IMG/VR virus record: IMGVR_UViG_3300018413_000024
Coordinates: 1 to 29,900 of that record
DNA length: 29,900 nucleotides
Reading direction: 5' to 3' (one strand)
From: a virus
Lineage: Duplodnaviria; Caudoviricetes
The notes beneath the pieces are model-generated. The model was given only the letters and a program-made list of their open reading frames with translations. It was not told where the DNA came from and ran no database searches. Positions 1,276 to 19,719 of the stretch are shown here, piece by piece. How positions within the stretch are numbered: position 1 is the first letter of the stretch; each line of letters starts with the position of its first letter. A program made the position numbers and the translations under genes.

Positions 1276-2466
1276 CTAGAATCCTAAGTGGTCTGTATCC
1301 AGTTTACCGAACAAACTGTCATCGAGTACCAGGAACGTATAGTCAATTTGGGCAATACCTATAGTAATGTCGTGGCGAATCTGCTCGACCTCACTATCGA
1401 GCTTGATAACCTGCCCGTATTGGAGGATGGGGTCCCCGATTCCGTTGGGAGTGAACTTGACAAGAATGATGTCACCAAGCTCCAAGCCCAATACTGAAGT
1501 TTTGTCCCCGGCGCTCATAGTATCCAGGTTCATAGACAAAGACTCGATACGGTATTCCGGGTCCACATACTTGCCCAGAATGAAGTCGGCAATATTTTGC
1601 AACTGGTCTGTGGAGTTTACGAGAGTTTCAATCTCCTCAGCGACAACCCCATAAGTGACCCTGGACCGTTCACTTGTTGCGTTAGCTGAACCAGCAGACG
1701 AAGTGACCGTTACATCATTGACCAAAAGCTCAGTGCCGTACACGACCTGAACTGAAGTGTAGGGAATCCCTGTACCGTCATCGGCAAAAGTAATCAGACT
1801 ATCCGACCTGGGTGTGGCGTCACCACGGTCCTGGAACACCAGGTCGCCAGACTTTGAGATGAACAGATTACCCTGCTCTGAAGTATCCACTTTCTGGAGG
1901 TACTCAAGGGCGTTGCCCTCGAACACGTCAGCCCCGAGCGTAGAATCGCCCTCTGAGATGATTCTTTTGTCCACCGGCCATAGAACCCCGTCCATATCGA
2001 GAACGGCGCTTACACGGGCTCCTGTAGCTTGTGGGGTGGCTGTGCCGGGCGTGACGAGCTGTCGAGCGAGCGAAGTGAACTCATCCGTAGCCAAAATCTC
2101 AGCTTTTGACCTACCGCCTGGGTCGTAGTCAAAGTTCCAGTCGTCAATAAGACCCTCAAACTGGCGCACCCCATCTGTAGTGATTCTTAGCCCACGCCTT
2201 GGAACAATCTGACCGTAGTAGGGACCGCCAGTGTATAACGGGTCAAACGTGCGCTGTTCGTTGTTCAGGACAACCGAAACTGCACCTGACGAGAATCTAT
2301 CCAGGTCCCGTGACTTACCCCTGGCAATACTAAGCTCAATCATTTTGTCGGTAATATCCGACCAAACAACACCGTCAAGCGTATAGGTGGGATTGTCTAG
2401 GACACCAGCTATTGGGTCGTCAAGAATGAAACCGGATACGGACTGGAACTCAACTACGGTAGCCAT
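1276..2466 (-). CDS. Minor tail protein (baseplate hub-like)
   Basis: 396 aa directly downstream of the tape measure gene, TAATG-coupled. F.LDD...G.LD motif at both termini. Confidence 0.75.
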   Translation of the reverse strand: MATVVEFQSVSGFILDDPIAGVLDNPTYTLDGVVWSDITDKMIELSIARGKSRDLDRFSSGAVSVVLNNEQRTFDPLYTGGPYYGQIVPRRGLRITTDGVRQFEGLIDDWNFDYDPGGRSKAEILATDEFTSLARQLVTPGTATPQATGARVSAVLDMDGVLWPVDKRIISEGDSTLGADVFEGNALEYLQKVDTSEQGNLFISKSGDLVFQDRGDATPRSDSLITFADDGTGIPYTSVQVVYGTELLVNDVTVTSSAGSANATSERSRVTYGVVAEEIETLVNSTDQLQNIADFILGKYVDPEYRIESLSMNLDTMSAGDKTSVLGLELGDIILVKFTPNGIGDPILQYGQVIKLDSEVEQIRHDITIGIAQIDYTFLVLDDSLFGKLDTDHLGF

Positions 2467-4778
2467 TACGCTCTCGCAAAGACAGGACCAGACTGCCTCT
2501 CATACCGTTTGATTTCCTTGATAATCTGCTCCCCGATACGCTGACCGTCAGCTCCTAGCCCAGCGTTCACAGTAATGTTGTAGGTGGCTCCCATCCCGCG
2601 CCCACGGCTCAACGGCACAACTGCCTCGGGACCAGCTTCACCTATCATCGCCAGGGTTGGGTCAGATACGATACCACCCTCAGCTAGCTTGGGAATACTC
2701 ACGCGGGGCAAGCCCAGTTTGCCTATCTCTGGCACATTGAAGCCGATAGTGCGCTCCGGGGAATCCCCGATTGCCGGAATCGTTATAGACAAGCGGTTGA
2801 GGGCACGAATCATAAAGTTCACGCCAGAGATAATCGTATTGACGAATCCCTCAAACGTGCTAATCCATGAGTTGATGTAACCCTCAATAAGACCACCGAT
2901 GAAATTGAGGACCGCCTTGAACACATCCTTGATTCCATTCCAAGCTACCCCGATGAACTCCACAAGTGACCCAAATACGGCGGGCATAACTTCACCGAAC
3001 CAGTAGTCCCATAGCTCGCCAAAACCCTCAACAACTGAAGTGAAAAAAGCAAACACTTCACCAACTAGCTTGCGCCCGTACTCGGTATTAGTCAGAAACC
3101 AGATAAGTCCCGCAGTCAGAGCCGCAATCCCAGCAATAATCAAGCCGATTGGGTTAGCAATCAAAGCCAAACCAAAAGCCTTCACAGCCAAAACAGCTTT
3201 ACTCGTAGCCAAGTTGTGAGCAATAGTTGCGGCTGTACTGGCAACCAAGCTGGCTTTATGAGCAACCGTAGCGGCTACGTTCCTAAGCGTGGTCCCGTTC
3301 AGCAAGTTGCCTACGATGACACCCAGCTTCTGCGCTGTCGTGTTCGCGTAGGTTGCCCCGACAGCCCCATAAGTTGCCAAGCTGAACCCGAGCATCAAGC
3401 CCTGCCCGATAGCAAGCCCGGCACGAAGTAGAGCAAACGCCTTCACCGCCACGAATACGGTAGCACCAATCTTGACAAGCGACTCATCCGTACCCTCGAT
3501 GACCTTAGCCACAAACTCCACAATAGGAATGAGAGCCTGGAGAATCTCAACGAACAAAGGTATAGCCATCTCAGCTAGGTCCAGAATGACCGGCGCGAGC
3601 ACATCAAGCATTGTGTTGGCAATCTCCAACAACGGCGGGGCAAGTCGCACAAACGCATCTATCAGAATCGGGATGGCTTGGTCCATTAGTTGCTGGATAA
3701 CCGTCAAAAGTGTGGGCAATGCGGTTATCGCCATCAGAGCGAACAGGTCAGAGATTGACTTGACAATGGGGATTAGCGGGGGCAACTGACCAAGCATGTT
3801 CTGGAACGAAGTAACCAACGGTTGGAATACCGACACAGCTCCACCGGCGCGGTCCCGAAGCATCGTCATAAAGGTTACGAATGTGGCAATCGGGACAGAC
3901 AGGTTGCGAACGAACTCAACCAGTTCATCCAGTCTGGGGTTCAGGAACTTGCCGATAGTTTCACCGACACTCTTAGCCATCTCCTCAACCGGACCTAAGC
4001 CCTCAATGGCGGCACGAAAAAACTCACCAAACTGGTCGTAGATGGGACCAATCAGGTTAGCCCCGACACGCTGGATTGCGGCTAGAGTATTCGCAAACGC
4101 GCCAGAGGTAGAGTCACCCATCTTGAGTGCGGCTCCACCAATCTTATTCTCCAGAGCATCCTGAAGAATGTCACCAGTGACAGCTCCGGCAGAGGCAAGC
4201 TCAAAGATTGCTTCCTCAGAAACACCCATCTCCTCAGCGAGCATCTGGAAGATTGGAAGCCCACGGTCCGCCAACTGCTGAAGCTCAACGCGGGTAGCTT
4301 TACCACTAGTCGTAACCTTGCCCATAATGGACTGAATCTCGGTCAGCGGTCTACCCGTGATTGCGGCTGTATCCGCCAGGATAGACAGGGTACGGGTCAG
4401 TTCCTCACCAGGTTTGACACCTGCCGCAACTGCTTGTGCCGCAATAGTTGCCGCATCCCCTAGCCCAAACGCGGTCCCCTTCACAGAGGCAAGCGCAGAA
4501 TCCATAATGTTCTCGATGGACTCAGCCTCATGCCCCAAACCTTTGAGCATAAACGTGGCTTGCTCAATCTGCTGAAGTCTTTGGAATCCCTTGGTGACTG
4601 CGAAGCTCAGACCAGCTACCGCTGTCGTGGCGGCAGTTGCCGCAACAACCATTCCGGTCCCGATGACCTTATTCAGCAGGTTGGAGCGTTGCTCGAATCC
4701 AACGATGGCACGCTGAGCGTTGTCCAAGCCCTTCAGGTCTGACTTGTAGACAATGGGTATAGTTATGCCCTTAGCCAC
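2466..4778 (-). CDS. Tape measure protein
   Basis: 770 aa, Ala/Gly-rich and helical. N-terminal tape-measure domain (VKGTAFGL, ELQQLADRGLPI), hydrophobic repeats, C-terminal LAEGGIV..PTLAMIGEAGPEAVVPL. Confidence 0.95.
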   Translation of the reverse strand: MAKGITIPIVYKSDLKGLDNAQRAIVGFEQRSNLLNKVIGTGMVVAATAATTAVAGLSFAVTKGFQRLQQIEQATFMLKGLGHEAESIENIMDSALASVKGTAFGLGDAATIAAQAVAAGVKPGEELTRTLSILADTAAITGRPLTEIQSIMGKVTTSGKATRVELQQLADRGLPIFQMLAEEMGVSEEAIFELASAGAVTGDILQDALENKIGGAALKMGDSTSGAFANTLAAIQRVGANLIGPIYDQFGEFFRAAIEGLGPVEEMAKSVGETIGKFLNPRLDELVEFVRNLSVPIATFVTFMTMLRDRAGGAVSVFQPLVTSFQNMLGQLPPLIPIVKSISDLFALMAITALPTLLTVIQQLMDQAIPILIDAFVRLAPPLLEIANTMLDVLAPVILDLAEMAIPLFVEILQALIPIVEFVAKVIEGTDESLVKIGATVFVAVKAFALLRAGLAIGQGLMLGFSLATYGAVGATYANTTAQKLGVIVGNLLNGTTLRNVAATVAHKASLVASTAATIAHNLATSKAVLAVKAFGLALIANPIGLIIAGIAALTAGLIWFLTNTEYGRKLVGEVFAFFTSVVEGFGELWDYWFGEVMPAVFGSLVEFIGVAWNGIKDVFKAVLNFIGGLIEGYINSWISTFEGFVNTIISGVNFMIRALNRLSITIPAIGDSPERTIGFNVPEIGKLGLPRVSIPKLAEGGIVSDPTLAMIGEAGPEAVVPLSRGRGMGATYNITVNAGLGADGQRIGEQIIKEIKRYERQSGPVFARA

Positions 4779-7230: not shown

Positions 7231-8412
7231 TTAGCTTGCGCCTCCAACGAAGTGACGCACGTGCGAAGCGTGAGTCAGGTCGCCATCTACGCGAATCAGG
7301 AAGCGGTAAGTAACCACGTCCGTGTTGAAAGCGTAGTCGGCAGAGGAAGCCACCTGGAGTCCACCAGCAAGGCGAACCTTGTAGCTGGGGAAGTGACCGA
7401 ACAGAACCGACTTGGCGTCAATCGCAGGTGCGGCAATGTTGGGGTTCTCAATGACGGGGAATCCGAGAATGGTGTCAGGTCCGCCAACTACAGGGTCGTA
7501 GATGTAGCGGTTGTCGCCATCCTTGAGTTTCCGCATTGCGCCCATTGCCGTACCGGAAGCCATGAAGCCAGTTCCGGGCAGACGGCGAACGAGTCCATCA
7601 ACACCGTTGTAAGCCAGGTCAATCAGGTTGTCAGCGGTGAAGGCACCGGTCACGCCGGTTCCACCCACGACACCTTCAGACGAAGCAGTCACGATACCGT
7701 TGGGCTTTGAAGAACCGTCACCCGTGGTGAGTGCGGCGTTCACAGCAGTTCCGATACCGTTACCAGCCTGACCTGCCAAGTGTGACTCAATGTCGAATCC
7801 GGCGTCAGAGATAAGCTCAGAAGCAACAGGAATCAACAGACCATACTTGTAAGCGCCAAGCGTGATGCTGGAGTATGTGGGCTCTGACTCGTCCAGGGCA
7901 GTACCGGCACCCTTGAGGGTTGCGGCGCTGTAGGCGGTCAGGGTTGGGATAGTGAGGTCCTCACCGGATGCGGTACGGATAACGTCAGAAACGCCTCCAT
8001 CGAGCATCGGTCCAACCAAACGTGCTACATCGAACACCTGGTCAAAGAATGACTTGGGTACGGTGTTAGCAGACGGGACCAAAGTCGCACGCTGTTCAGC
8101 GCCGAAAGTGTGGTCACGCATTTCTCCCAAAGCAATGCTACGCAGGATGTCACCAGCGGTACGGTCTTCAGACCGCTCAGCGGGTGCGAATCCCTTGGAT
8201 GCTTCAGCGACCTCACGGGCACGTTCCTCGTTGCGCTTAGCTACCTCAATAGCTTCATCGGCACGGCGGATGTCACCCTCAATGCGGTCAATCTTCTCAA
8301 TCTCAGCAGAGTCGAGCCCACGGCTCTCAGACTCAGCACCATCGATGACCTCACGGATTTGCGAAGTAAGGTTGGCGCGGAGTTCCTGCTGAGTCTTTAC
8401 GAACTCAGACAA
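7231..8412 (-). CDS. Major capsid protein, HK97 family
   Basis: N-terminal coiled-coil delta domain, then TGDGSSKPNGI, RKLKDGDNRYI, LFGHFPSY and RVDG motifs. TTG at 8412 follows GGAG (track start 8424). Confidence 0.95.
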   Translation of the reverse strand: MSEFVKTQQELRANLTSQIREVIDGAESESRGLDSAEIEKIDRIEGDIRRADEAIEVAKRNEERAREVAEASKGFAPAERSEDRTAGDILRSIALGEMRDHTFGAEQRATLVPSANTVPKSFFDQVFDVARLVGPMLDGGVSDVIRTASGEDLTIPTLTAYSAATLKGAGTALDESEPTYSSITLGAYKYGLLIPVASELISDAGFDIESHLAGQAGNGIGTAVNAALTTGDGSSKPNGIVTASSEGVVGGTGVTGAFTADNLIDLAYNGVDGLVRRLPGTGFMASGTAMGAMRKLKDGDNRYIYDPVVGGPDTILGFPVIENPNIAAPAIDAKSVLFGHFPSYKVRLAGGLQVASSADYAFNTDVVTYRFLIRVDGDLTHASHVRHFVGGAS

Positions 8413-8508
8413 TGTAATCTCCAATGTGTTGGTTTACTAGGGTTTGCCCAGGGTGGTTCCACTCACTGACGCTGGTCGGCAGAGCACACTCACGATTCCG
8501 ACATACCT

Positions 8509-8517
8509 AGTCTAGCA
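8509..8517 (-). promoter_or_regulatory. Extended -10 promoter TGC-TAGACT for the capsid gene
   Basis: TGn-TAnnnT about 97 nt upstream of the capsid start. An own promoter is expected because an opposite-strand island separates capsid from protease. Confidence 0.6.
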
Positions 8518-8574
8518 GGATGACCTCAAAATGTGCGGCTCCAGAGCCCTTTAGAATCGCGGGGTCTAGGGTCC

Positions 8575-8603
8575 TAGACAATCGGGGACTTAAGGACTAG
8601 ACT
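8575..8603 (+). promoter_or_regulatory. Sigma70-type promoter of the plus-strand island
   Basis: TAGACA (8575-8580), 17-nt spacer, TAGACT (8598-8603). Confidence 0.7.
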
Positions 8604-8698
8604 TAAGGGACCGCGTTGCTCCTGGCTAGTGAAGGTGACAGTGAAGCTACTGACCGAGTGACTGCGAATGGATACTGAAAACTACAGAGTGACTGAAT

Positions 8699-8725
8699 GA
8701 CTGACTGGCCTGCTGGATGGCTCGC
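8699..8725 (+). repeat. Long-range inverted repeat A, left arm (pairs with 9440-9466)
   Basis: GACTGACTGGCCTGCTGGATGGCTCGC. Against the right arm: 24/27 Watson-Crick, 1 G.U, 2 U.U. Confidence 0.95.
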
Positions 8726-8741
8726 TCCTCGTATCTACGAT

Positions 8742-8771
8742 GACCGGGTTGCCTGCTGGCTGTCCATCCTC
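8742..8771 (+). repeat. Long-range inverted repeat B, left arm (pairs with 9044-9073)
   Basis: GACCGGGTTGCCTGCTGGCTGTCCATCCTC. Against the right arm: 27/30 Watson-Crick, 1 G.U, 2 U.U. Confidence 0.95.
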
Positions 8772-8794
8772 CTACAAAACTGGAGGTACTGATT

Positions 8795-9037
8795 ATGGCT
8801 ACTTACAATCTGCGTATTACTGAAAAACAACGCGATGCTTTGGCTGCCGCGCTGAGCTACTACGAGATGCTACGAGTTGATGAGCCACCCGTGACTATTC
8901 CTGACGAATGGTCTGGTCGTGCCGAGCGTGCTGAATACAATGACTACGCTCGTGACGAGAATCGCATGATTCGTGCGATAAACAAGATTGAGGAGCAGTT
9001 GGGTTTCCGACTCACTCCTACTCTTGACTACAAATAA
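8795..9037 (+). CDS. Hypothetical protein (island ORF1, 80 aa)
   Basis: AAACTGGAGGT RBS. First gene after the island promoter, enclosed by repeat pair B. Confidence 0.8.
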   Translation: MATYNLRITEKQRDALAAALSYYEMLRVDEPPVTIPDEWSGRAERAEYNDYARDENRMIRAINKIEEQLGFRLTPTLDYK

Positions 9038-9043
9038 TCATCT

Positions 9044-9073
9044 GAGGATGGACAGTCTGCTGGCAACCCGGTC
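9044..9073 (+). repeat. Inverted repeat B, right arm
   Basis: GAGGATGGACAGTCTGCTGGCAACCCGGTC, starting 6 nt after the ORF1 stop. Confidence 0.95.
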
Positions 9074-9097
9074 CGAATGAAACTGGAGGTGCCTACT

Positions 9098-9433
9098 ATG
9101 GACACTATATTCAAACCGCTTGGCGATTGGAAACCTTACTACATCCCAGAGGGAACTGAGGTTCCTGCTACCGACCTGCGACGTGCTCGCAAGGTCTACC
9201 GTGGTGAGAGCTGGGGTGGCCCTACTACCTACAAGCTCGCGAGCCATAAAGCAGACCCTACAGAGACGCTTTACATCTGGGAGACTCACTCCGATGGTTC
9301 TGCTATCTGTGTTCAGGATGACGCTAGCCACTTGAACCGTGCCGAGAATGAAGGCATATTCGAGATGCGTTGCGACAATCTGGACCTTGAGGGTCGTGCT
9401 CTTATGGCTGAATACCTGGACGAGATTCGCTAG
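9098..9433 (+). CDS. Hypothetical protein (island ORF2, 111 aa)
   Basis: Same AAACTGGAGGT RBS as ORF1 places the start at ATG 9098 (MDTIFKP). Confidence 0.8.
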   Translation: MDTIFKPLGDWKPYYIPEGTEVPATDLRRARKVYRGESWGGPTTYKLASHKADPTETLYIWETHSDGSAICVQDDASHLNRAENEGIFEMRCDNLDLEGRALMAEYLDEIR

Positions 9434-9439
9434 TCCACT

Positions 9440-9466
9440 GCGAGCCATCCTGCTGGCTAGTCAGTC
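9440..9466 (+). repeat. Inverted repeat A, right arm
   Basis: GCGAGCCATCCTGCTGGCTAGTCAGTC, starting 6 nt after the ORF2 stop. Confidence 0.95.
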
Positions 9467-9496
9467 CCCTACCTAATCAGAAGAATGGAGAATCAA

Positions 9497-9700
9497 ATGA
9501 TTGATGTCAAATATCCTGAAGTTGAAGTGGACCTGGTTGGTGAAGACGGTAACGCCTACTCCATCCTGGGTCGTGTCCAGAAGGCAATGCGTCGTGCCGG
9601 TGTTCCTGCCGGTGAGATTGAGGCATACCTGAAGGAAGCCACCGCCGGTGACTACAACCACCTGCTCGCTACAACCTGCGAGTGGGTTCACGCTAACTGA
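9497..9700 (+). CDS. Conserved small phage protein (island ORF3)
   Basis: LVGEDGNAYSILGRV..AMRRAG...GDYNHLL resembles a widespread uncharacterised phage family. GGAG RBS. Confidence 0.8.
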   Translation: MIDVKYPEVEVDLVGEDGNAYSILGRVQKAMRRAGVPAGEIEAYLKEATAGDYNHLLATTCEWVHAN

Positions 9701-9712
9701 TTGGAGAATCTG

Positions 9713-10135
9713 ATGAATCACAAGTTCACCACTGAGGATGGGCTACCCACTGAGGGAACAATAGCCCACTCCTTGTTTACTGAAACCTACCCCAAAGTGG
9801 AACTGGTCGAGCCTGTCCAGTTCGGTTGGGATGGTTACAACACACGGCTCAAGGTTGGCGATATTTTCTACCGCTACCCCTTGGAACCGATGACGGAATA
9901 CGATGAGGGTAGGTGCTACCGGGTTGCGCTTTTGCAAAACGGTGCCGCTTACCTTTTGAATTTTCCTACAAGCGGTTCGTTTACTGCGGACCGAGAATGG
10001 TTCCAAGGTCGCACAGCCAAAGGCAAATTCTACTCATACGGTTACACCTTGATAGCCCGTCATACGGATGAGGTGAAGCCTGGCTATGCGATTGACCGGT
10101 TGGACAAATGGGCTAAGCAATACGCTGGGTCCTGA
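9713..10135 (+). CDS. Hypothetical protein (island ORF4)
   Basis: GGAG RBS before ATG 9713. Aromatic-rich, 140 aa. Confidence 0.75.
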   Translation: MNHKFTTEDGLPTEGTIAHSLFTETYPKVELVEPVQFGWDGYNTRLKVGDIFYRYPLEPMTEYDEGRCYRVALLQNGAAYLLNFPTSGSFTADREWFQGRTAKGKFYSYGYTLIARHTDEVKPGYAIDRLDKWAKQYAGS

Positions 10136-10138
10136 TTG

Positions 10139-10172
10139 GGTGGGGTGGGGGACTTTGGTCCCCTGCCCCGCC
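10139..10172 (+). terminator. GC-rich hairpin within the island (partial terminator or processing/stabilising stem)
   Basis: 15-bp stem GGTGGGGTGGGGGAC/GTCCCCTGCCCCGCC with 3 G.U pairs that form only on plus-strand RNA. Weak U tail (ACTTTGATT). Confidence 0.6.
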
Positions 10173-10192
10173 ACTTTGATTGGAGGAAGCAA

Positions 10193-10504
10193 ATGAACAA
10201 GGTACGAACTGACGAATCGGTCTACTGGGACCGTTACTCGGATGCCCTATACGATGTTACTAGCCAGTTGGATTCTATGCGGAAGCGCATTAGCTGGATA
10301 TGTGACCGGGCTGACGGGTTCAAACGACAGACTGGCTCTGAGCGCCGTGAAGAACTTGTCAAGTCGGTGCGAGATGAACTGTCTGATGTTTGCAATGTCG
10401 CTTACCGCGATGCCCTGGATACTATCGCCAAGCTGGAAGCTATGGTCGGCATGGAGATTGAGGCAGAGGGCATTATCAAACGAATGGAGGAAGGCAATGG
10501 CTAA
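10193..10504 (+). CDS. Hypothetical helical protein (island ORF5)
   Basis: GGAGG RBS before ATG 10193 (MNKVRTD). Confidence 0.75.
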   Translation: MNKVRTDESVYWDRYSDALYDVTSQLDSMRKRISWICDRADGFKRQTGSERREELVKSVRDELSDVCNVAYRDALDTIAKLEAMVGMEIEAEGIIKRMEEGNG

Positions 10505-10835
10505 GAGAATACCTGCCAAAGTGAACCGTTACATGAGGGTCATGCGAGCTTTGCGTGCCGCCAAGGATACCGCTAACACTTCTACTAGCAAGTGGAGTGT
10601 TGTGGAGCCCTGGGGTCGTGACGAAGCCAGTGAGCTTCAGAATCATATCCACGAGATGATTCGTGCTAAGCGTGCTGAGCTTGCTGAGCTTGAACACGCT
10701 TGGTCTGAACTCATTGAGATGGTGGACGATGGTTGTGTTGAGGAATACACCGAGTTCACCCGCGCTCAGATGGAACGTCATGCTGAGGCTATGCGCCGTG
10801 GTCATGAGGAACTGAAGAAACGAGTGCTCTCATGA
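10497..10835 (+). CDS. Hypothetical coiled-coil protein (island ORF6)
   Basis: GGAGG RBS before ATG 10497 (MAKRIPAK). 8-nt overlap with ORF5. Confidence 0.75.
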   Translation: MAKRIPAKVNRYMRVMRALRAAKDTANTSTSKWSVVEPWGRDEASELQNHIHEMIRAKRAELAELEHAWSELIEMVDDGCVEEYTEFTRAQMERHAEAMRRGHEELKKRVLS

Positions 10836-11035
10836 TGACTCGCAAAGATTACATCGCAATCGCTGAGGCTATTGTCCCCTGCGGTTTGGAGATGGGTGCT
10901 AGTGACTATGAGTTACTAGTGGACCGCTTGAGTGCTGTGTTCGAGCGTGACAATCCCCAATTTGACCGTGAGCGTTGGGAGCTTGCCTGTGGGTTCCAAA
11001 GAATCCCTGGCTCCTATGTTCGCCACACTGTGTGA
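10832..11035 (+). CDS. Conserved small phage protein (island ORF7)
   Basis: MTRKDY..IA...F..DNP.FD.ER...AC pattern resembling a common small phage family. ATGA overlap. Confidence 0.75.
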   Translation: MMTRKDYIAIAEAIVPCGLEMGASDYELLVDRLSAVFERDNPQFDRERWELACGFQRIPGSYVRHTV

Positions 11036-11045
11036 CAGTGACAAG

Positions 11046-11083
11046 AATACCCCTGGAGCTTATTGGCTCTGGGGGTATTTTTG
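11046..11083 (+). terminator. Intrinsic terminator ending the island
   Basis: 14-bp stem AATACCCCTGGAGC/GCTCTGGGGGTATT (2 G.U) running into a T tract, between convergent genes. Confidence 0.8.
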
Positions 11084-11086
11084 TAT

Positions 11087-11275
11087 CTACCTTACCTCGG
11101 TAGGTTCAGTCACTCTGACTTCACGCTTGGGCTTCTCCGCCCTGGGTGACTCATCTGGAGTGTCCAGTTCGGCAACTGCCTTAGCCATCTGGTCCGCCAA
11201 AGAATGGATTGCGCCACTCTCGGGATTCCCCGCCACCTTGAGGATTGCCTCTTTGATGTCTTTTTCACTAGCCAT
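11087..11275 (-). CDS. Small head-module protein (62 aa)
   Basis: Overlaps the protease stop and has a GGAG RBS. Ends KREVRVTEPTEVR. Confidence 0.7.
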   Translation of the reverse strand: MASEKDIKEAILKVAGNPESGAIHSLADQMAKAVAELDTPDESPRAEKPKREVRVTEPTEVR

Positions 11276-12668
11276 TGATTAGCTCCAATAGTTTGAGTTT
11301 CTGCTTCTTGAGTTCAAGCATAGCCTTGCCGTTGTCCTCATCCTCAGCTGGCTTCTCTGGGGCAATCGAGTCAAGGACCTCATTGAGCAAGCGCGTATCT
11401 TCCTCAGTCATGTCCTCACCCATCTCCAGTTTCACTAGGGCATCGGATAAGGCATCCAGGTCCACGTTTGCTCGCTGAGCGACTCTCTCAAGACCACGGA
11501 CCGTAGCCTTACCGGAAGTGCCCTCGTATGCGGGAAACGCAACAATGCTGACCTCGTGAAGCATAACCTCACGCAGAGTGCGCTCCTTGCCGTCCTCGGA
11601 CCAGTCATCTCCGCCACGGGGTACGGTAAAACCAAAGCTCATAGCGTCCACATCCCCACGCTTGAGGAGTTCAGCCGCGTCACGCCCAGTAGTGGTGTTA
11701 GGCAGTTGAGCTACAACCTTGAGCCCGCGCTCATCCTCAACCAGTTTCATCGTGCCGGACCGGGTAGAGCCCAGGACCTCACTAGTGTCGTGATTCCACA
11801 GCAACTTGATGTCGTTGCGGGACTTGAGTGACCGGATGAAAGCTCCAGGTGCTATACGCTCAGTGAACGGAAGTGGCTTGCTCGGAGAATCAAATAATGC
11901 GGCATAGCCCTCAAAGAACATGCCGTCAGCGTTCTCACGGACCTCCATCTCTTCCAATGGTGTTTCGCGTGTTTCAATAGCAGGCAAAGTGTGTCCCCTG
12001 TCTTTCTGCTCAGCTTCCAGTCTACCAACCACACGGTCAGCATACTTCATTGCTCGCTCCGCGCCACGTTTTGTGGGTCCACTTCCCCATAATAGGTGAG
12101 CGACCACTCCAGGGCTGGGATACTTGTCGTTGTCTGGGTCTGCCGCAGGAGCATCTAGGTCAGGCATATGCCGTGCTATCCAAGCCCGCAATCTGACCCA
12201 CTTCTCTGAGGTCACGTTACCCTCAGCCATAGCACGAGCTTCACGAATGGTCTTTTCCTTCAGACCACCACCGCCCTTGCCTTCCTCCACATACTTGAGC
12301 CCCTGCCTTGCCGCAGCACGCATGAACGCTGGCGGGTCCAGGTTCAAGGCACGGTCCTCAGAGCCCCTGTCAGGCGTTAGGGATTCTCCCGGGGTTCCTA
12401 TATCGGTGAAGCCCTGTTCGTCGCTCAGACGCGATTCTGACGCCTCTATTTCTGGGTTTTGACCCTGATTCCGGGTCCGATTCCCCTCAAATGGCTCATT
12501 TTGCCCCTCATAGGTTCCTCCAGGTTCCATGCCTTCATCCTGCGATATCGCAACCATCTGCTCTACAGCCCCATCCTTGTCGTCATGGCACCCAACCACT
12601 TCGCCATCCTCTTTGACAACAGCCCAGCCCGGGCAACTGTCAGCTTCATCGGTAATGAAATACGGCAT
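11268..12668 (-). CDS. HK97-family prohead protease with long N-terminal extension
   Basis: C-terminal half has FEGYAALF, F.E.I.PGAF, LWNHD (His), MSFGF (Ser) and EVSIVAFPAY. About 230 extra N-terminal residues. Confidence 0.92.
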   Translation of the reverse strand: MPYFITDEADSCPGWAVVKEDGEVVGCHDDKDGAVEQMVAISQDEGMEPGGTYEGQNEPFEGNRTRNQGQNPEIEASESRLSDEQGFTDIGTPGESLTPDRGSEDRALNLDPPAFMRAAARQGLKYVEEGKGGGGLKEKTIREARAMAEGNVTSEKWVRLRAWIARHMPDLDAPAADPDNDKYPSPGVVAHLLWGSGPTKRGAERAMKYADRVVGRLEAEQKDRGHTLPAIETRETPLEEMEVRENADGMFFEGYAALFDSPSKPLPFTERIAPGAFIRSLKSRNDIKLLWNHDTSEVLGSTRSGTMKLVEDERGLKVVAQLPNTTTGRDAAELLKRGDVDAMSFGFTVPRGGDDWSEDGKERTLREVMLHEVSIVAFPAYEGTSGKATVRGLERVAQRANVDLDALSDALVKLEMGEDMTEEDTRLLNEVLDSIAPEKPAEDEDNGKAMLELKKQKLKLLELING

Positions 12669-12946
12669 TAGTCATTCTTTTGGATTTGGAGAACATGGAC
12701 CACGGGTGCTCCCTGACTGCTATATGCGTATAACACATCCCCAGGGCGCAAAGTCATTGACATAGTTTCGCCAGCGTGGAGGTGGAGCCCGTTGGTGTTA
12801 TCTACGGTGGCGTTGCCTAACAATACGGTTGTGGACTCACTGTGGTCTGCCTCGTGAACCCAAATATCTTGGGGCATATTGTCAGCCGAAGCAACCAATA
12901 CTCTTGTGCTCTCGGCAATCGTGAAATGGTTGTTGATAATGGGCAT
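12668..12946 (-). CDS. Hypothetical beta-rich protein, possibly virion-associated
   Basis: 92 aa, TAATG-coupled to both portal and protease. Confidence 0.7.
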   Translation of the reverse strand: MPIINNHFTIAESTRVLVASADNMPQDIWVHEADHSESTTVLLGNATVDNTNGLHLHAGETMSMTLRPGDVLYAYSSQGAPVVHVLQIQKND

Positions 12947-14310
12947 TATTTGACCTCATCCTCATACGGTTCCTCTGGGTCCTCGGGGTCCACTTGAGAA
13001 ACTGGCTGAAGTTGCGAGCTAGCAAGACCAGTGTGCTCGATAGCGGGTAGACCCAGGGCTTCCAAAACCTGCTCAGGGTTGAATCCGACCAGAACCAACT
13101 GCTGTGCGGCTTGGACCTTGTTCTTGATAGCGGTGATACCGGAATCGTCCAGGTCCACGTTGGCTAACGGCACTCTAACCATGTTCGCCGTTGGGTCGTC
13201 CATCGGTGTCAGGTCCTCAAGCCTACGGACGTCATTGATTGTCAAGAATCCTGACTGTAACCCTGTCGAATATGCGGATGCTCTGGTCTGGAGGTCAGCT
13301 CGAAGCAATCCGTCCAGGTTGAACTTGATGTATGCGTTTTCTCCACGCGGGGACCGAGCCAAAAGTGGGCTCAGGCTACCCTCAATCTTTTGGATGATTG
13401 GTCGCAAACCGTGGGTAACCCAAGCCAGGTTGTTCTGCTCCACGCTCGCATAGGATGTAGTCCCGGGCAGACCAAGCAGGTGGGGTGGGATATTGAACGC
13501 TCTAGCGATATCCTCTACCGCCATGTGTCGTGCCTCTAGCGCTTGCGACTGAGCCGGGTCAATCTGGGTCGCTTTGAAAGTGGCTCCACCGGACAACACA
13601 CCAGTCTTGTGACCCTTACGCCAACCTTTATGGCGGTTATCGAATCCATTGACCAGATTTGCGGCTTGCTCGGCGGTCAGGTTGCCGGGGAACTCAATGA
13701 TTCCGCTGAGGTTGGTTCCTTGACCAAAGAATGAAGCCGCAAACTTTTCCAGCCCCATAGCCAGCCCAAAGTTTTCCTTGAGTGCCTTGATTCTCGACAC
13801 GCCACGGACCTCACCAGGGCGAACAATGTCCGGAATCCAAACTATGGACTCTGAATCGAATGGTCTACCCTCATTCTCAACGGTGAACGTCAGTCTGCCG
13901 ACAGAATTGCGTTTGATTTCCACTGTCAGCGGGTTCAGGACCGTCAGGTTCACAATCTCGCCACGCCGATTCGAGAATACCCGGATGAAAGCGTTTCCAT
14001 CGAGCAAAAGCGACACGATAAGTGAGTTGTAGAACGCTTCACGGGGCATATCCACATCTGGCTTGTTCACCCAAGCTGGTTTCGGGTCCAGCTCCTCGCG
14101 GTTACCGTCTACCTTCACATAGCAGTTCACCGGCAGAGTGGAAACCGTATTGGCGATAAGGCTGACAGCAGAGAATACGGCATTGACCTCAAACACGGTC
14201 TTGTCCGTAATGTTCGTAGATGACAGATTGCCTATTGTCAGGTCGTCACCGCTACCCCAAACGGTTTGAAAGTCAATGGCTCTCTGCTCGAACAGCTTAT
14301 TGAAAACCAT
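12946..14310 (-). CDS. Portal protein, HK97 family
   Basis: AVFSAVSLIA..VSTLP, LLLDGNAF, IARAFNIPPHLLG, SYASVEQ and G.LTINDVRRLEDL motifs. Confidence 0.96.
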   Translation of the reverse strand: MVFNKLFEQRAIDFQTVWGSGDDLTIGNLSSTNITDKTVFEVNAVFSAVSLIANTVSTLPVNCYVKVDGNREELDPKPAWVNKPDVDMPREAFYNSLIVSLLLDGNAFIRVFSNRRGEIVNLTVLNPLTVEIKRNSVGRLTFTVENEGRPFDSESIVWIPDIVRPGEVRGVSRIKALKENFGLAMGLEKFAASFFGQGTNLSGIIEFPGNLTAEQAANLVNGFDNRHKGWRKGHKTGVLSGGATFKATQIDPAQSQALEARHMAVEDIARAFNIPPHLLGLPGTTSYASVEQNNLAWVTHGLRPIIQKIEGSLSPLLARSPRGENAYIKFNLDGLLRADLQTRASAYSTGLQSGFLTINDVRRLEDLTPMDDPTANMVRVPLANVDLDDSGITAIKNKVQAAQQLVLVGFNPEQVLEALGLPAIEHTGLASSQLQPVSQVDPEDPEEPYEDEVK

Positions 14311-14448: not shown

Positions 14449-15969
14449 CTATCCAAAGAACTCAGGTACTAGTGCTTCCATTCTACCGATAGTTGCCCGG
14501 TCTACGGCAATAACCGCCGCAACCGCTGAGTCAATCTTGCGTGGACTGTCGCGCTTGTCTTTTACTATACGGGGTCCAACTGAGTCAATCTTGACAACCG
14601 CGTTATCCAAATGGCGTGCCAAAGTGGGGTCCCCATCGTGAACTAGGCGTTTCTCAATGACGGCATCGTAGAACTTGGTACAAGCTGGGACCATACGCTT
14701 AGCACTTGTGGACGGGTATTCCACAATAGGTAGACCGTAGTCCTCCAAAACCTGCATCGTTCTTGTCCAACGGTAGGGGTCGCAAGCGATTTCCCTGACA
14801 TTGGGATGGTCCCGGCAAAACTCAATCAGGGTTTGCTCGACCTCACGAACATCCACCCGCCAGTCCTCATCGTGAATCTCTAGGTCCTTCTCCCAAGCCT
14901 TCACCATGAACACTCTCAGCGGGTCATCCTCATCCTCGGGGATAACACAGCCCACGATTACTGTGGCGTCACCGTTGAACGAGCCATCGAATCCTAGAAT
15001 GATTTGGTCATCAGGTTTGACCTCGAATGTTTCCTCGCAAGCATCCCACGCCCCATTCGGGAGCCACGCCAGTTGGCTAGACACCCACTGGTTACAGCGC
15101 TTGGTCCTGAACTCTGCTTCCGGGGTCCGGCGGACCGAAGAATGAAAGTCGCTGGGAGCGTTCAGGTCCGCATAGCCTGGGTTAGCTTTACGCCATGTTT
15201 CCTCGTCACGGTGGTCCCCGTCATCCTCCCACCAAGCCATAAAGAATGTAGGGTCATCTACTTCCCCACGGGATATTTTCTGGCCATATTGGTACAAGTC
15301 GTATGCGATTGAGTCCCGACCAGTGCTATCAGCCTTGACACCTGCCGTTGTGATGGCGAGCATCGTTGCCATCGAACCACGAGCACCCATAGCCAGCGAC
15401 ATAACGTCAAATAGGTCACGATTTGGTTGGGCGTGAAGCTCGTCAAACATGACGAACGTGGGGTTCAGACCCTCTTTTGAGTACGCCTCAGCCGACAGAA
15501 CCGTATACGAACTATTACCGGCAGGATAGTAGATGGCGTTACGGTAGACCTTCATCATCTTGGATAGTTCCTCAGATTCACTCACAATCCGTGCCGCATC
15601 CTTGAACACAATACGGGCTTGCCCCGTTTCTGCGGCTACAGAATACACTTCCCCGCCCTCGGGTCCGGCGATAAGCGAATACAGCGCCAGAACGGAACCC
15701 AGGGCTGATTTGCCGTTCTTGCGGGGCATCCCGACATAGTTGATTCTGTGACGGAGCTGGTCAGTCTCATCATGGGCGAAAATATGCCTAATCAGGTCCT
15801 TTTGCCAATCCCTCAGAATCAGTGGGCTCCCTGACTTGCCTGCGACAGAATCTTTGGTGACAATGCCGTACTGTTCCGCAAACTCAATAGCAATATGTCC
15901 CTCTCCACGGTCCAAGTGGTCCTGGGGAACGGGCGTAAGCCATTTGGGGCTATGACTTGTGAAGCTCAT
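14449..15969 (-). CDS. terL: Terminase large subunit
   Basis: LRDWQ, Walker A PRKNGKS, Walker B VMFDELH, ITTAG, nuclease GFDGS and KIDSAVA. Likely start ATG 15969. Confidence 0.97.
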   Translation of the reverse strand: MSFTSHSPKWLTPVPQDHLDRGEGHIAIEFAEQYGIVTKDSVAGKSGSPLILRDWQKDLIRHIFAHDETDQLRHRINYVGMPRKNGKSALGSVLALYSLIAGPEGGEVYSVAAETGQARIVFKDAARIVSESEELSKMMKVYRNAIYYPAGNSSYTVLSAEAYSKEGLNPTFVMFDELHAQPNRDLFDVMSLAMGARGSMATMLAITTAGVKADSTGRDSIAYDLYQYGQKISRGEVDDPTFFMAWWEDDGDHRDEETWRKANPGYADLNAPSDFHSSVRRTPEAEFRTKRCNQWVSSQLAWLPNGAWDACEETFEVKPDDQIILGFDGSFNGDATVIVGCVIPEDEDDPLRVFMVKAWEKDLEIHDEDWRVDVREVEQTLIEFCRDHPNVREIACDPYRWTRTMQVLEDYGLPIVEYPSTSAKRMVPACTKFYDAVIEKRLVHDGDPTLARHLDNAVVKIDSVGPRIVKDKRDSPRKIDSAVAAVIAVDRATIGRMEALVPEFFG

Positions 15970-16408
15970 TGCGTTTCCTGATGATTTCTTCAATCTTTGA
16001 CGCCTTCTTGACCTCAGCCACACCCAGGCGGGTCCTATCGCTAGGCGTGAACCCAAGCAGAGAGAGATTGCGAACAATCTGGTTGGAAACTGAGTCTAGC
16101 CTGCGAGCCATCCCCATATCGTCAGAGTTCATTACCTTGATTCGCAGATTCCAGCGCTCATCCACAAGCTCGCAAGTCATAAGCAGGATTTCCATGTCGG
16201 TGGAAGGTGATATCCATTGAATACCTGCTCCCCAAACCTCATCCCACAATCTGCGACCAGGTTTCAGCAGTGGTCTAGGCGGCTCAGGAATACCGTCAGC
16301 TTGCGGAAGTAACTCAACCTCCATCGGGTCCGGCAGTTTACGCTTTCCAGGGTTGCCCGTCTTACGCTTTATCTCCACCGGGGTAGGTGGTCTACCTCTT
16401 TGCGTCAT
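15950..16408 (-). CDS. terS: Terminase small subunit (P27-like)
   Basis: GRPPTP..K...GNPGKR N-terminus and LGFTPSDR..L C-terminus. ATG 16408 overlaps the upstream TGA. Confidence 0.92.
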   Translation of the reverse strand: MTQRGRPPTPVEIKRKTGNPGKRKLPDPMEVELLPQADGIPEPPRPLLKPGRRLWDEVWGAGIQWISPSTDMEILLMTCELVDERWNLRIKVMNSDDMGMARRLDSVSNQIVRNLSLLGFTPSDRTRLGVAEVKKASKIEEIIRKRNELHKS

Positions 16409-17193
16409 ATCCTGGGCTCTCTCGCGTAGGTCTTGGCTTTCAGCCGTATGTTCGGTACTTCTCCAGCCTTCCAATACATACTAGCCAAATCTGGGTATCT
16501 GGCACATATTGCTTCCAATTCGGCACGGTGCTCAGTCATTCTGTTAGGGATACCTTTATCTTTCACCTCCGCATCTATTCCACCCAACGAAAAAAACTTG
16601 GTCTTGAACGAAAGCCAGTCCATCCTGACAACAGAGCCATATATCAAGAATGACCGCAAGGTTGTTTCGTAGTCATCACCGGAACTCACTTTTGGTCTGT
16701 TTGAATCAGTAATCGTAGGGTCCCCGGCGTAGTTCCCGTAAAGTCCACCCGGAATGTAGCGCAATCCTACTATTGCCTTGTCCGACATATAGAAACCATT
16801 ACCGGTAGGGTTTATGCCCCACATTCCTGAGCCATACTTTTCGCAAAGGTCAAACCCGCGGGCGACCATATCGTCAAAGGAACCAGAATACGGCACCACC
16901 TTGTCCCCATCCTTTTCGGTCAAGTCCTTGATGTCATCATCCAGATTGACCAGTCGTGTCCCGGCGGGATAGTAGTTGTGGTAAAACTGCTGAGCGTTCA
17001 CCTTACCTACCTCAGCAATCACAATCTTGACATCCTCGGGAACAAAACGCTTGTACCAGTCATACTCTGCTTCGTTAGCCACGAACACCGTAACTAGTGT
17101 GGGGTTTACCCCATACTTAGCGAGCAAAGCGAGCGTAGCGGTTGCTACACCGTTTGGGCGCTTGTAGCTAGGGATAGCAACCTGATATCCCAC
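16405..17193 (-). CDS. TET-associated glycosyltransferase-like protein 3 (GT-A fold)
   Basis: YQVAIPSYKR strand, NLDDD (DxD), WGI, GDDYE and a C-terminal GG motif. In an operon with the TET/JBP-like gene. Confidence 0.85.
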   Translation of the reverse strand: MGYQVAIPSYKRPNGVATATLALLAKYGVNPTLVTVFVANEAEYDWYKRFVPEDVKIVIAEVGKVNAQQFYHNYYPAGTRLVNLDDDIKDLTEKDGDKVVPYSGSFDDMVARGFDLCEKYGSGMWGINPTGNGFYMSDKAIVGLRYIPGGLYGNYAGDPTITDSNRPKVSSGDDYETTLRSFLIYGSVVRMDWLSFKTKFFSLGGIDAEVKDKGIPNRMTEHRAELEAICARYPDLASMYWKAGEVPNIRLKAKTYAREPRI

Positions 17194-18861: not shown

Positions 18862-19719
18862 CTACGGCACCAGCTTAGCCACCTTCTCAGCCATAACGTG
18901 CTCCCTGGCTGACCTGCGAGCCTTGGCTTCCCCAATCTCGACAGCATAGGTGTGACAATCCTTCATGCCCTTTTTGGCGTAGAACACGATGGAGTAACGG
19001 TAACCGTCCTTGGTCCTGGGCTTCATGGGTGTAACGCCGTGAACGTACCGGAATCCATTGAACCAGAGCGCCCATCCGTCACGACAGTTGATAGTAATGT
19101 CATATTCCGGCATATGGAGGTTTCCGCCTTCCATTCCCCTGCGGATGACGGGCATAGCGGACCAGGTGTCAAAATTGGAACCGTCACGGTGATAGGGCAA
19201 GGCACTCGACTGGTTTATGACACCTGAAGTCCAGAGAGAATCCTCGGTCATACGCCATTCCGGTAGGACTGCCCCTACAGCCTGATAGTCGTGCTCGTAT
19301 ACCTCGGGGAGCACATCGCGTAGATAATCCCCAAGCGCGGTAGCCTGTTCGTTCAGTTCCATCTGGAGCGATGGCGATTCCCAGGCGATTCCGGCTGGAG
19401 CGCAAGCCTCACGGCGTAGAACTACCGACCTGTTAGTCATTCCGAATATCTTAGAAACATTGCGGGTGCCTTTGGCTCTCAGAGTAGTTGTCCACTTGAC
19501 CGCTGGAATCTGCTGACGAAGAATCGCCGTGGACCGTGGGCTGGGCGCATAGACCAGGATTGCTTCCCCGGTATCGGCGTCACGGTAAATGCCTGCCTCA
19601 TTGACATTGGGGACTTTATCCACAACTTTATCCCCAACTACCTTCTCTGCCTCGGGCACGGTTAGTGCTCTCTGGATGAAGAACTCAGGTAGAACTTGAG
19701 TTGAGGTTTCTGACAGCAT
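18862..19719 (-). CDS. TET/JBP-like 2-oxoglutarate/Fe(II) dioxygenase
   Basis: TSGVIN...LPYHRD..N (HxD), GGNL, HGVTP (distal His) and RYSIVFY (2OG-binding Arg), matching the TET/JBP motif order. Confidence 0.88.
   Translation of the reverse strand: MLSETSTQVLPEFFIQRALTVPEAEKVVGDKVVDKVPNVNEAGIYRDADTGEAILVYAPSPRSTAILRQQIPAVKWTTTLRAKGTRNVSKIFGMTNRSVVLRREACAPAGIAWESPSLQMELNEQATALGDYLRDVLPEVYEHDYQAVGAVLPEWRMTEDSLWTSGVINQSSALPYHRDGSNFDTWSAMPVIRRGMEGGNLHMPEYDITINCRDGWALWFNGFRYVHGVTPMKPRTKDGYRYSIVFYAKKGMKDCHTYAVEIGEAKARRSAREHVMAEKVAKLVP

Follow-up and report, generated by a model that had tools for sequence, protein, structure and literature searches.

Processing of phage messages by ribonuclease III (RNase III) is textbook knowledge for T7, in which the signals are local intergenic hairpins with an internal loop that are usually cut once. 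Long-range RNase III duplexes are known for ribosomal RNA (rRNA) and, since 2018-2025, for some bacterial messenger RNAs (mRNAs). Here, an uncultured salt-marsh phage of the Caudoviricetes (IMG/VR record IMGVR_UViG_3300018413_000024) was analyzed, whose entire viral contig of 29.9 kb is called the window below. In an island operon of this phage, two long-range helices, the outer A/A' and the inner B/B', which pair sequences as far as 740 bases apart, apply an rRNA-style layout in nested form to protein-coding open reading frames (ORFs), and both share a symmetric CUGCUG core which would mark the expected seat of the dimeric enzyme. The proposal that the nested helices in the island RNA are cut by the host RNase III at this core was given about an even chance of being correct.

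The leader-trailer stems of 16S and 23S rRNA (PMC6582327) are long-range helices made by the flanks of the enclosed part and formed only after that part has been transcribed, and in this the phage helices are alike. In the rRNA stems RNase III, a dimeric nuclease for double-stranded RNA, cuts both strands, while cleavage in the phage helices is predicted. The phage case differs in enclosing protein-coding genes, in being nested rather than consecutive, and in the presence of the same symmetric U.U-GC-U.U core in both helices. The RNase III targets of bacterial mRNAs (PMC6212723, PMC11780869) are likewise duplexes of 10-36 base pairs (bp) with strands tens to about a thousand nucleotides (nt) apart, with paired cuts 2 bp apart and, in E. 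coli, a preference for G-C/C-G between the cuts. Further long-range targets are the pairing of the 5' and 3' untranslated regions of icaR in S. aureus (PMC3868564) and yabJ-spoVG (bioRxiv 10.64898/2026.09.18.752551). As these sources describe them, the bacterial targets are single duplexes in cellular mRNAs and mostly lower expression, whereas the phage helices are a nested, intergenic pair around whole genes with a repeated core and U.U pairs next to the presumed cuts.

The early polycistronic mRNA of T7 contains five intercistronic RNase III signals (PMC3867540), and both there and, as predicted, here a phage operon RNA is cut to single-gene messages with a protective end duplex. Instead of forming local hairpins, the strands of the present helices are 272 nt (B/B') and 714 nt (A/A') apart with ORFs enclosed. 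The archaeal bulge-helix-bulge consists of two 3-nt bulges on opposite strands 4 bp apart, and the excised RNA is circularised; the phage helices have 1x1 U.U mismatches 2 bp apart. The archaeal element is similar in its two-fold symmetric irregularity in the middle of a long-range helix, which is served by a symmetric endonuclease (PMC3867540, PMC10515664), but a scan of 33 phage proteins revealed neither a splicing endonuclease nor a ligase, and the hint to the host is bacterial. The PeSL cassettes of T4-type phages (PMC2839356, PMC4122927) also have short conserved non-coding elements beside hypervariable small genes. PeSLs are described there as direct repeats with a promoter and a local stem-loop, acting by DNA recombination, whereas the arms studied here are inverted, pair as RNA and contain no promoter-like site in a consensus scan, whose one plus-strand site lies upstream (Table 1). 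An earlier note on this DNA had not recognised such a scheme for phage mRNAs as described; this stands in part only, long-range RNase III duplexes in bacterial mRNAs having been published. In a literature search covering few subscription journals, no paper was listed on long-range stems that enclose genes within phage messages. What is new here is the nesting together with the identical symmetric U.U-GC-U.U core.

The island operon carries the four arms in its leader and in its first two intergenic spacers. Compared base by base, B and B' formed 27 Watson-Crick, 1 G.U and 2 U.U pairs over 30 nt (90% complementary), and A and A' formed 24 Watson-Crick, 1 G.U and 2 U.U pairs over 27 nt (89%). 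They were the two longest among 29 inverted pairs in the whole window. Inverted repeats were scored as matches minus 2 x mismatches, and 100 dinucleotide shuffles of the window served as the null. The scores were 21 for B and 18 for A, and the best score of a shuffle was at most 19 (mean 13.5), so that B was above 100 of 100 shuffles and A was reached by one of them. The minimum-free-energy fold of 8640-9500 contained both helices, with a z of -8.2 against 20 shuffles. The arms, pairing and nesting proposed in the earlier note, its core on all four arms and its two U.U and one G.U pair per helix were all confirmed.

The core was found as YCUGCUGG on all four arms of the plus strand. There were 8 copies of CTGCTGG in the window, four of them being those of the arms, all on the plus strand, and CCTGCTGG occurred in 4 copies (3 in arms) where 1.5 were expected. 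At the centre of each helix the cores form a symmetric 5'-CUGCUG-3'/3'-GUCGUC-5', that is U.U-GC-U.U, located 13-16 positions from either helix end. In single arms the near-palindrome was limited to the 8-nt core. The cores, as CUGCUGG(C), are presumably also complementary to universal 16S rRNA at about 515-522 (515F primer region), which is probably a coincidence. A and B had previously been described as unlike outside the core; instead, an identity of 78% was obtained for the left arms (over 23 nt) and of 75% for the right arms (over 24 nt), which indicated that the A and B arms are paralogues. Beside the core, the flanks of A and B have diverged, at 6/10 for the outer and about 2/9 for the inner half, with only the pairing kept. 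The earlier observation of a 6-nt gap between a stop codon and the start of each right arm was true of the window (stops ending at 9037 and 9433), but gaps of 6, 25, 13, 8 and 6 nt in relatives showed that the spacing is not conserved.

Nine arm-bearing contigs were found in IMG/VR, and their haplotypes formed three or four groups: G1, which has the sequence of the window; G2, with L001 and L002; L003; and G3, with L084, L086 and L087. Arms were present in 4 of 80 capsid relatives (L001, L002, L003 and L005), with a capsid identity of at least 92%. A second lineage with arms was obtained by the ORF3 search, at 81% ORF3 identity; both helices were present in 4 of 14 ORF3 relatives (L081, L084, L086 and L087), whereas L083 had only A/A', and in L082 and L085 the A' arm was located at the edge of the contig. 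No new haplotype was obtained from exact IMG/VR scans for both right arms, from scans for the core plus the inner halves of the left arms (79 loci screened), from ORF3 and ORF2 protein scans, or from one metagenome scan and one genome scan, and the INPHARED phages gave no match. Matches not belonging to the clade (L096, L101, L108 and four weak pairs) had no partner arm and look like chance. Only a small clade has the helix element, whose function is putative. In the distant, ORF3-bearing L088 (87 kb), two left arms of 29-31 nt (TTTATCGGTTATA...; positions noted are 1675-1703, 2254-2284 and 4192-4222) were both complementary to one site just after the ORF3 homologue; this layout, unrelated in sequence, is possibly analogous.

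The contents of the helices changed among the haplotypes. Between B and B', G3 contained two ORFs (1a and 1b), the window 1b and G2 1a; the homologue of ORF1 in G3 is accordingly ORF1b (L087 3289-3534). In L003 the entire B domain was lost and A/A' was kept, with an additional Cys-rich ORF of 65 amino acids (aa) within A/A'. ORF2 homologues were present in L002, L003 and L087 (62-83% identity). Compared to G3, the window showed arm identities of 30/30 (B), 30/30 (B'), 25/27 (A) and 22/27 (A'), and gene identities of 76% (ORF1) and 84% (ORF2). Compared to L002, the arms were 93-100%, ORF1 44% and ORF2 65% identical, and across all haplotypes the ORFs were 44-84% and the arms 81-100% identical. 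The loop differences were attributed to in-frame deletions between copies of a repeated translation-start sequence, AAACTGGAGGT-N7-ATGGCTAC, not to breaks at the arms. Thus the comparison with relatives suggested in the earlier note gave what it had looked for, namely a kept core, compensatory changes and enclosed genes that have diverged or been lost.

Covariation was analyzed on 5 distinct rows and 57 pairs. Three pairs were changed on both sides (G-C to C-G, U-A to C-G and C-G to U-A), and three showed one-sided changes, all giving U.G or G.U. Arm A was identical in G1, G2 and L003, and its inner half was changed with compensation in G3, where G-C to C-G, U-A to C-G, U-A to U.G and G-C to G.U were detected. 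For B, C-G was changed to U-A in G2, and L002 additionally had U-A changed to U.G. The proportion of paired cells was 92.5%, compared with 25-48% when the partners were slid by 1-3 columns, and 7 of 500 shuffles had a covariation score as high as the 0.051 obtained here (0.031 in shuffles). Neither the U.U pairs nor the central GC varied in any arm, and the core was 8/8 or 7/8 identical on the four arms in all haplotypes. Irrespective of the cargo, both helices were formed in the minimum-free-energy fold of every haplotype (24-25 of the 27 pairs of A/A' and 25-28 of the 30 pairs of B/B'), with a mean pair probability of 0.85-0.92. Five wobble positions pair in plus-strand RNA only, and as a result the plus-strand duplexes exceeded their complements in stability by 4.5-9.6 kcal/mol. 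The G.U changes and this strand preference bear out the proposal that the arms pair as plus-strand RNA. On the basis of sequence comparison, the helices are best described as a selected plus-strand RNA structure with a core under sequence constraint, rather than as a DNA site, given that pairing is kept through compensatory and wobble changes, that the U.U pairs are invariant and that the plus strand is the more stable.

Table 1. Helix arms, island features and main genes of the phage contig; positions refer to the window unless another contig is named.
Feature	Position	Strand	Basis	Remarks
Arm A	8699..8725	+		5' arm of outer helix; core CCUGCUGG at 8709-8716
Arm B	8742..8771	+		5' arm of inner helix; core CCUGCUGG at 8752-8759
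Arm B'	9044..9073	+		3' arm of inner helix; core UCUGCUGG at 9056-9063
Arm A'	9440..9466	+		3' arm of outer helix; core CCUGCUGG at 9449-9456
Promoter-like site of island operon	8575..8603	+	consensus scan	TAGACA-17 nt-TAGACT
Shine-Dalgarno of ORF1	8782..8786	+	sequence	GGAGG
ORF1	8795..9037	+		80 aa, unknown function, inside B/B'
ORF2	9098..9433	+		between arms B' and A'; 111 aa, function unknown
ORF3	9497..9700	+		phrog_1933, unknown function, first gene outside the helices
ORF4	9701..10135	+		unknown function
Terminator-like G+C-rich hairpin after ORF4	10139..10172	+	sequence scan	
Tape measure	2466-4778	-		
Major capsid	7231-8424	-		
Head protease	11268-12668	-		
Portal	12946-14310	-		
Large terminase	14449-16077	-		
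Replication and modification genes	beyond 16 kb	-		
tmRNA-like match, L002	924-1005	+		window equivalent about 8518
tmRNA-like match, L003	1589-1670	+		window equivalent about 8518
tmRNA-like match, L037	5130-5211	+		window equivalent about 8518

In the proposed mechanism, A and B of the nascent RNA would pair core to core, and the 3' end of B would cover the ribosome-binding site of ORF1. Synthesis of B' would displace A:B and the masking of the ORF1 site, so that translation and processing would begin only once the enclosed gene is fully transcribed. An RNase III dimer would have its centre at the G-C/C-G step that the two U.U pairs enclose. The invariant symmetric core yields four precise predicted cut positions with a 2-nt 3' overhang, between 8713 and 8714, 8756 and 8757, 9060 and 9061, and 9453 and 9454. 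The expected products would be a leader (about 8610-8713), a piece of 43 nt (8714-8756) and three messages, for ORF1 (8757-9060), for ORF2 (9061-9453) and for ORF3-4 (9454 to about 10175). Each new 5' or 3' end would be kept within a duplex of 12-14 bp, shielded from end-dependent RNases, and the 43-nt piece would bridge both ends of the ORF2 message. If so, the locus would be a natural system for the effect of dyad mismatches on RNase III, for message stabilisation by duplexed ends, and for the question whether such frames aid the gain and loss of accessory genes.

Several properties of the helices fit with known RNase III substrates. The ideal substrate has 22 bp and a two-fold symmetry centred between the cuts (PMC3867540), and the helices have 27 and 30 positions, interrupted only by two U.U pairs each, with the symmetric core mid-helix in both, as fits a dimer of the enzyme. 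In E. coli the two positions that separate the cuts are about 90% paired with G-C/C-G strongly favoured, and cut sites are 16-1080 nt apart (PMC6212723); in B. subtilis, the enzyme cuts long-range duplexes in mRNAs that have 10-36 bp and strands up to 505 nt apart (PMC11780869). The central step of the phage core is an invariant G-C/C-G, which would fall between the cuts provided that the enzyme centres on the core. The phage proteins (33 scanned) contained no RNase III domain and no RNA ligase. The only relative in a genome collection lies in a metagenome-assembled genome (MAG) of the Microbacteriaceae which encodes RNase III, a weak hint to the host. Mimicry of host rRNA stems was rejected, as no CTGCTG was found in the 16S flanks of this candidate-host MAG, whose link to the phage is weak. 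A Chi-like hotspot gained no support either: CCTGCTGG occurred 193 times in the MAG against 99 for the reversed control, a two-fold excess only.

A number of observations weigh against cleavage at the core or against its evidential base. Next to the cuts, pairing is present in more than 90% of the mapped sites of RNase III (PMC11780869), and mismatches at the target site can restrict cleavage to one strand (PMC3867540), whereas in the phage helices U.U pairs directly flank the central 2 bp. In G3 one terminal A pair was lost as a C.A mismatch. The count of doubly changed pairs was reached by 36 of 500 shuffles, and the covariation came from 3-4 independent haplotypes of one narrow clade. B and B' of G1 and G3 were 60/60 identical despite about 20% divergence around them, and recent recombination could explain this as well as constraint. 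The ends of the operon RNA contigs (8744, 8777, 8993, 9046, 9469, 9486 and 9506) did not match the predicted cuts. Finally, by sequence comparison the helix device is dispensable, since 17 capsid relatives at 63-84% identity had no comparable helix, with other content or a similar island in its place.

The RNA contigs came from four salt-marsh metatranscriptomes, in which assembled contigs cannot reveal RNA ends. Contigs of the operon were detected in 4 of 4 runs at a depth of 2.6-7.4, compared with 25-42 for the capsid message; ORF1 was covered in 2 of 4 runs and ORF3-4 in all 4. RNA contigs were absent over 8496-8743 and 9047-9468, and none crossed a predicted cut with 31 nt to either side of it, which at a depth of 3-7 is not evidence. 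The circularisation considered in the earlier note left no sign, with no RNA ligase in the 33 proteins and no joints in RNA contigs.

The main rival of cleavage, or its complement, is a masking and refolding layer. According to this explanation, which we consider unlikely, the helices stay uncut and act as a co-transcriptional folding switch by which the first genes are translated only after full transcription: B masks the ORF1 site and pairs with A, and B' and then A' displace these pairings, while the U.U-GC-U.U core lets the arms nucleate mutually or blunts RNase III on a helix that is needed. The 3' end of arm B, CCUCC (8768-8772), is complementary to the ORF1 Shine-Dalgarno and paired with it in the predicted fold of the nascent RNA. 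The unpaired probability of this Shine-Dalgarno in the window was 0.00 before B' and 0.43 after, and across G1, G2 and G3 it rose from 0.00-0.02 to 0.34-0.47 on synthesis of B', values which are thermodynamic predictions on near-identical B arms, the three haplotypes not being independent. The core-to-core hairpin of A and B had -34.3 kcal/mol (z -2.66), and in such a model the core may support an ordered refolding from A:B to B:B' and then A:A'. The U.U pairs never vary, cleavage is disturbed by mismatches at the target site, and RNase III is able to bind without cutting (PMC3867540). However, a helix of 27-30 bp far exceeds the need of masking, and the switch was predicted for the ORF1 site only, the second site (SD2) being unpaired at 0.09-0.13 in all states. 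Nothing was found to be masked by the A/A' helix, and the L003 lineage keeps A/A' without a B domain.

An extension of the cleavage proposal, which we hold to be quite unlikely, is that the core is a dedicated, sequence-specific cut signal of modular cassettes, by which any gene flanked by arms is excised as a message with clamped ends, and that it also times translation. The self-complementary core would then let any arm pair with any other, and the ends of ORF2 bridged by the 43-nt leader splint might even be ligated. If true, these cassettes would represent an undescribed and widespread phage route for accessory gene expression.

Distinctly improbable is a third explanation, that the core is bound or cut by a specific dimeric protein which is not RNase III. 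This protein, a product of the phage (perhaps of the island) or of the host, would recognise CUGCUG/CUGCUG with its two U.U pairs and regulate or process the operon. The conservation of the core at 8/8 or 7/8 while the flanks of A and B diverged with pairing kept suggested sequence-specific and not merely helical recognition, and all seven island ORFs are of unknown function. Domain scans revealed no RNA-binding or nuclease domain among the island proteins, though, and the preference of RNase III for G-C/C-G between the cuts (PMC6212723) makes an extra factor unnecessary. As the scans of the island proteins speak against this protein, so does the lack of a parallel: we know of no nameable precedent for a dedicated core-binding protein.

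Very improbable, lastly, is that the arms are DNA elements, either inversion or excision sites or conserved boundary sequences for cassette exchange by homologous recombination, in the manner of the PeSL cassettes. The gene content of the loops does differ among haplotypes with arms that are 93-100% identical, the identity of B and B' between G1 and G3 is complete, and in DNA run X13, from another habitat and with divergent forms, the match jumps from 9090 to 9449 (the A' core) with undefined letters between, probably as a replaced ORF2. Against this, the five wobble positions make sense in plus-strand RNA only, and every copy retains its two T/T mismatches, a point against gene conversion having homogenised the arms. 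As for the DNA-level rearrangement that the earlier note had named as refuting its proposal, no inverted or excised form was present in the nine IMG/VR contigs, the seven with an arm pair all being collinear; of four metagenomic DNA runs three bridged the arms collinearly (window-haplotype contigs X4 8300-9395, X8 8382-9035 and X10 9325-9518), and strand-changing joints were absent. No recombinase domain was found among the 33 phage proteins, single arms were without the dyad-symmetric half-sites of invertase sites, and the loop differences fit the in-frame deletions described above. The arms may secondarily serve as homology patches.

Other candidates around the helices were also discarded. 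A leader peptide ORF (8697-8792) across A and B lacked its ATG in G3, and an alternative partner of A within ORF2 (8707-8725/9239-9257) was not conserved in G3 and was taken as chance. Rfam covariance models applied to 8000-11500 at E<=1 gave only two chance-level matches, both elsewhere.

Nearly all genes of the contig are carried by the minus strand (Table 1). The island of 2.3 kb between the protease and capsid genes contains seven small plus-strand ORFs (8795-11035), of which none of the 7 had a Pfam match and only ORF3 a PHROG match. For ORF1 and ORF2, no usable function was obtained from Pfam, PHROGs or Atlas, the Atlas search of ORF1 being uninformative. Transcription of the operon is predicted to start near 8610; both promoter hexamers were conserved with a variable spacer in the G2, L003 and G3 haplotypes. 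The hairpin after ORF4 probably ends the first transcription unit, and RNA contigs ending at 10105-10109 (3 runs) and 10135 (one run) gave a weak hint of termination. In the X13 DNA haplotype, 9700 was joined directly to 10138 with two other letters between, without ORF4, which indicated that island gene content varies also where stems are absent.

Upstream of the island, the motif CTAGAC was repeated in both orientations (8563-8603 and 8509-8515), including a palindrome, GTCTAGG-GT-CCTAGAC, just upstream of the island promoter, whose hexamers resemble the motif. Judged from its placement, CTAGAC may be an operator common to the divergent capsid and island promoters. The capsid-message contigs of the four runs all ended at 8493-8495, one with an Illumina adapter as a loose end, which suggests a 5' end of the capsid mRNA (minus-strand RNA) about 70 nt upstream of the start codon. 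In relatives, an 82-nt Rfam match to transfer-messenger RNA (tmRNA; RF00023, 60-72 bits, gathering score 47) was located on the strand of the capsid gene, between that gene and the island promoter, and the window and G3 are without it. The match spans the model end to end, which indicated a tRNA-like domain without an mRNA-like part; a tRNA in this insert was rejected, as ARAGORN called none.

Among the genes beyond 16 kb on the minus strand, a Tet/JBP 2OG-Fe dioxygenase (18862-19719; 36.6 bits, cut-off 34.9) and a weak match to a TET-associated glycosyltransferase (16405-17193; 26.3 bits, cut-off 27.5) were detected, which together suggest a putative cytosine hypermodification of the phage DNA.

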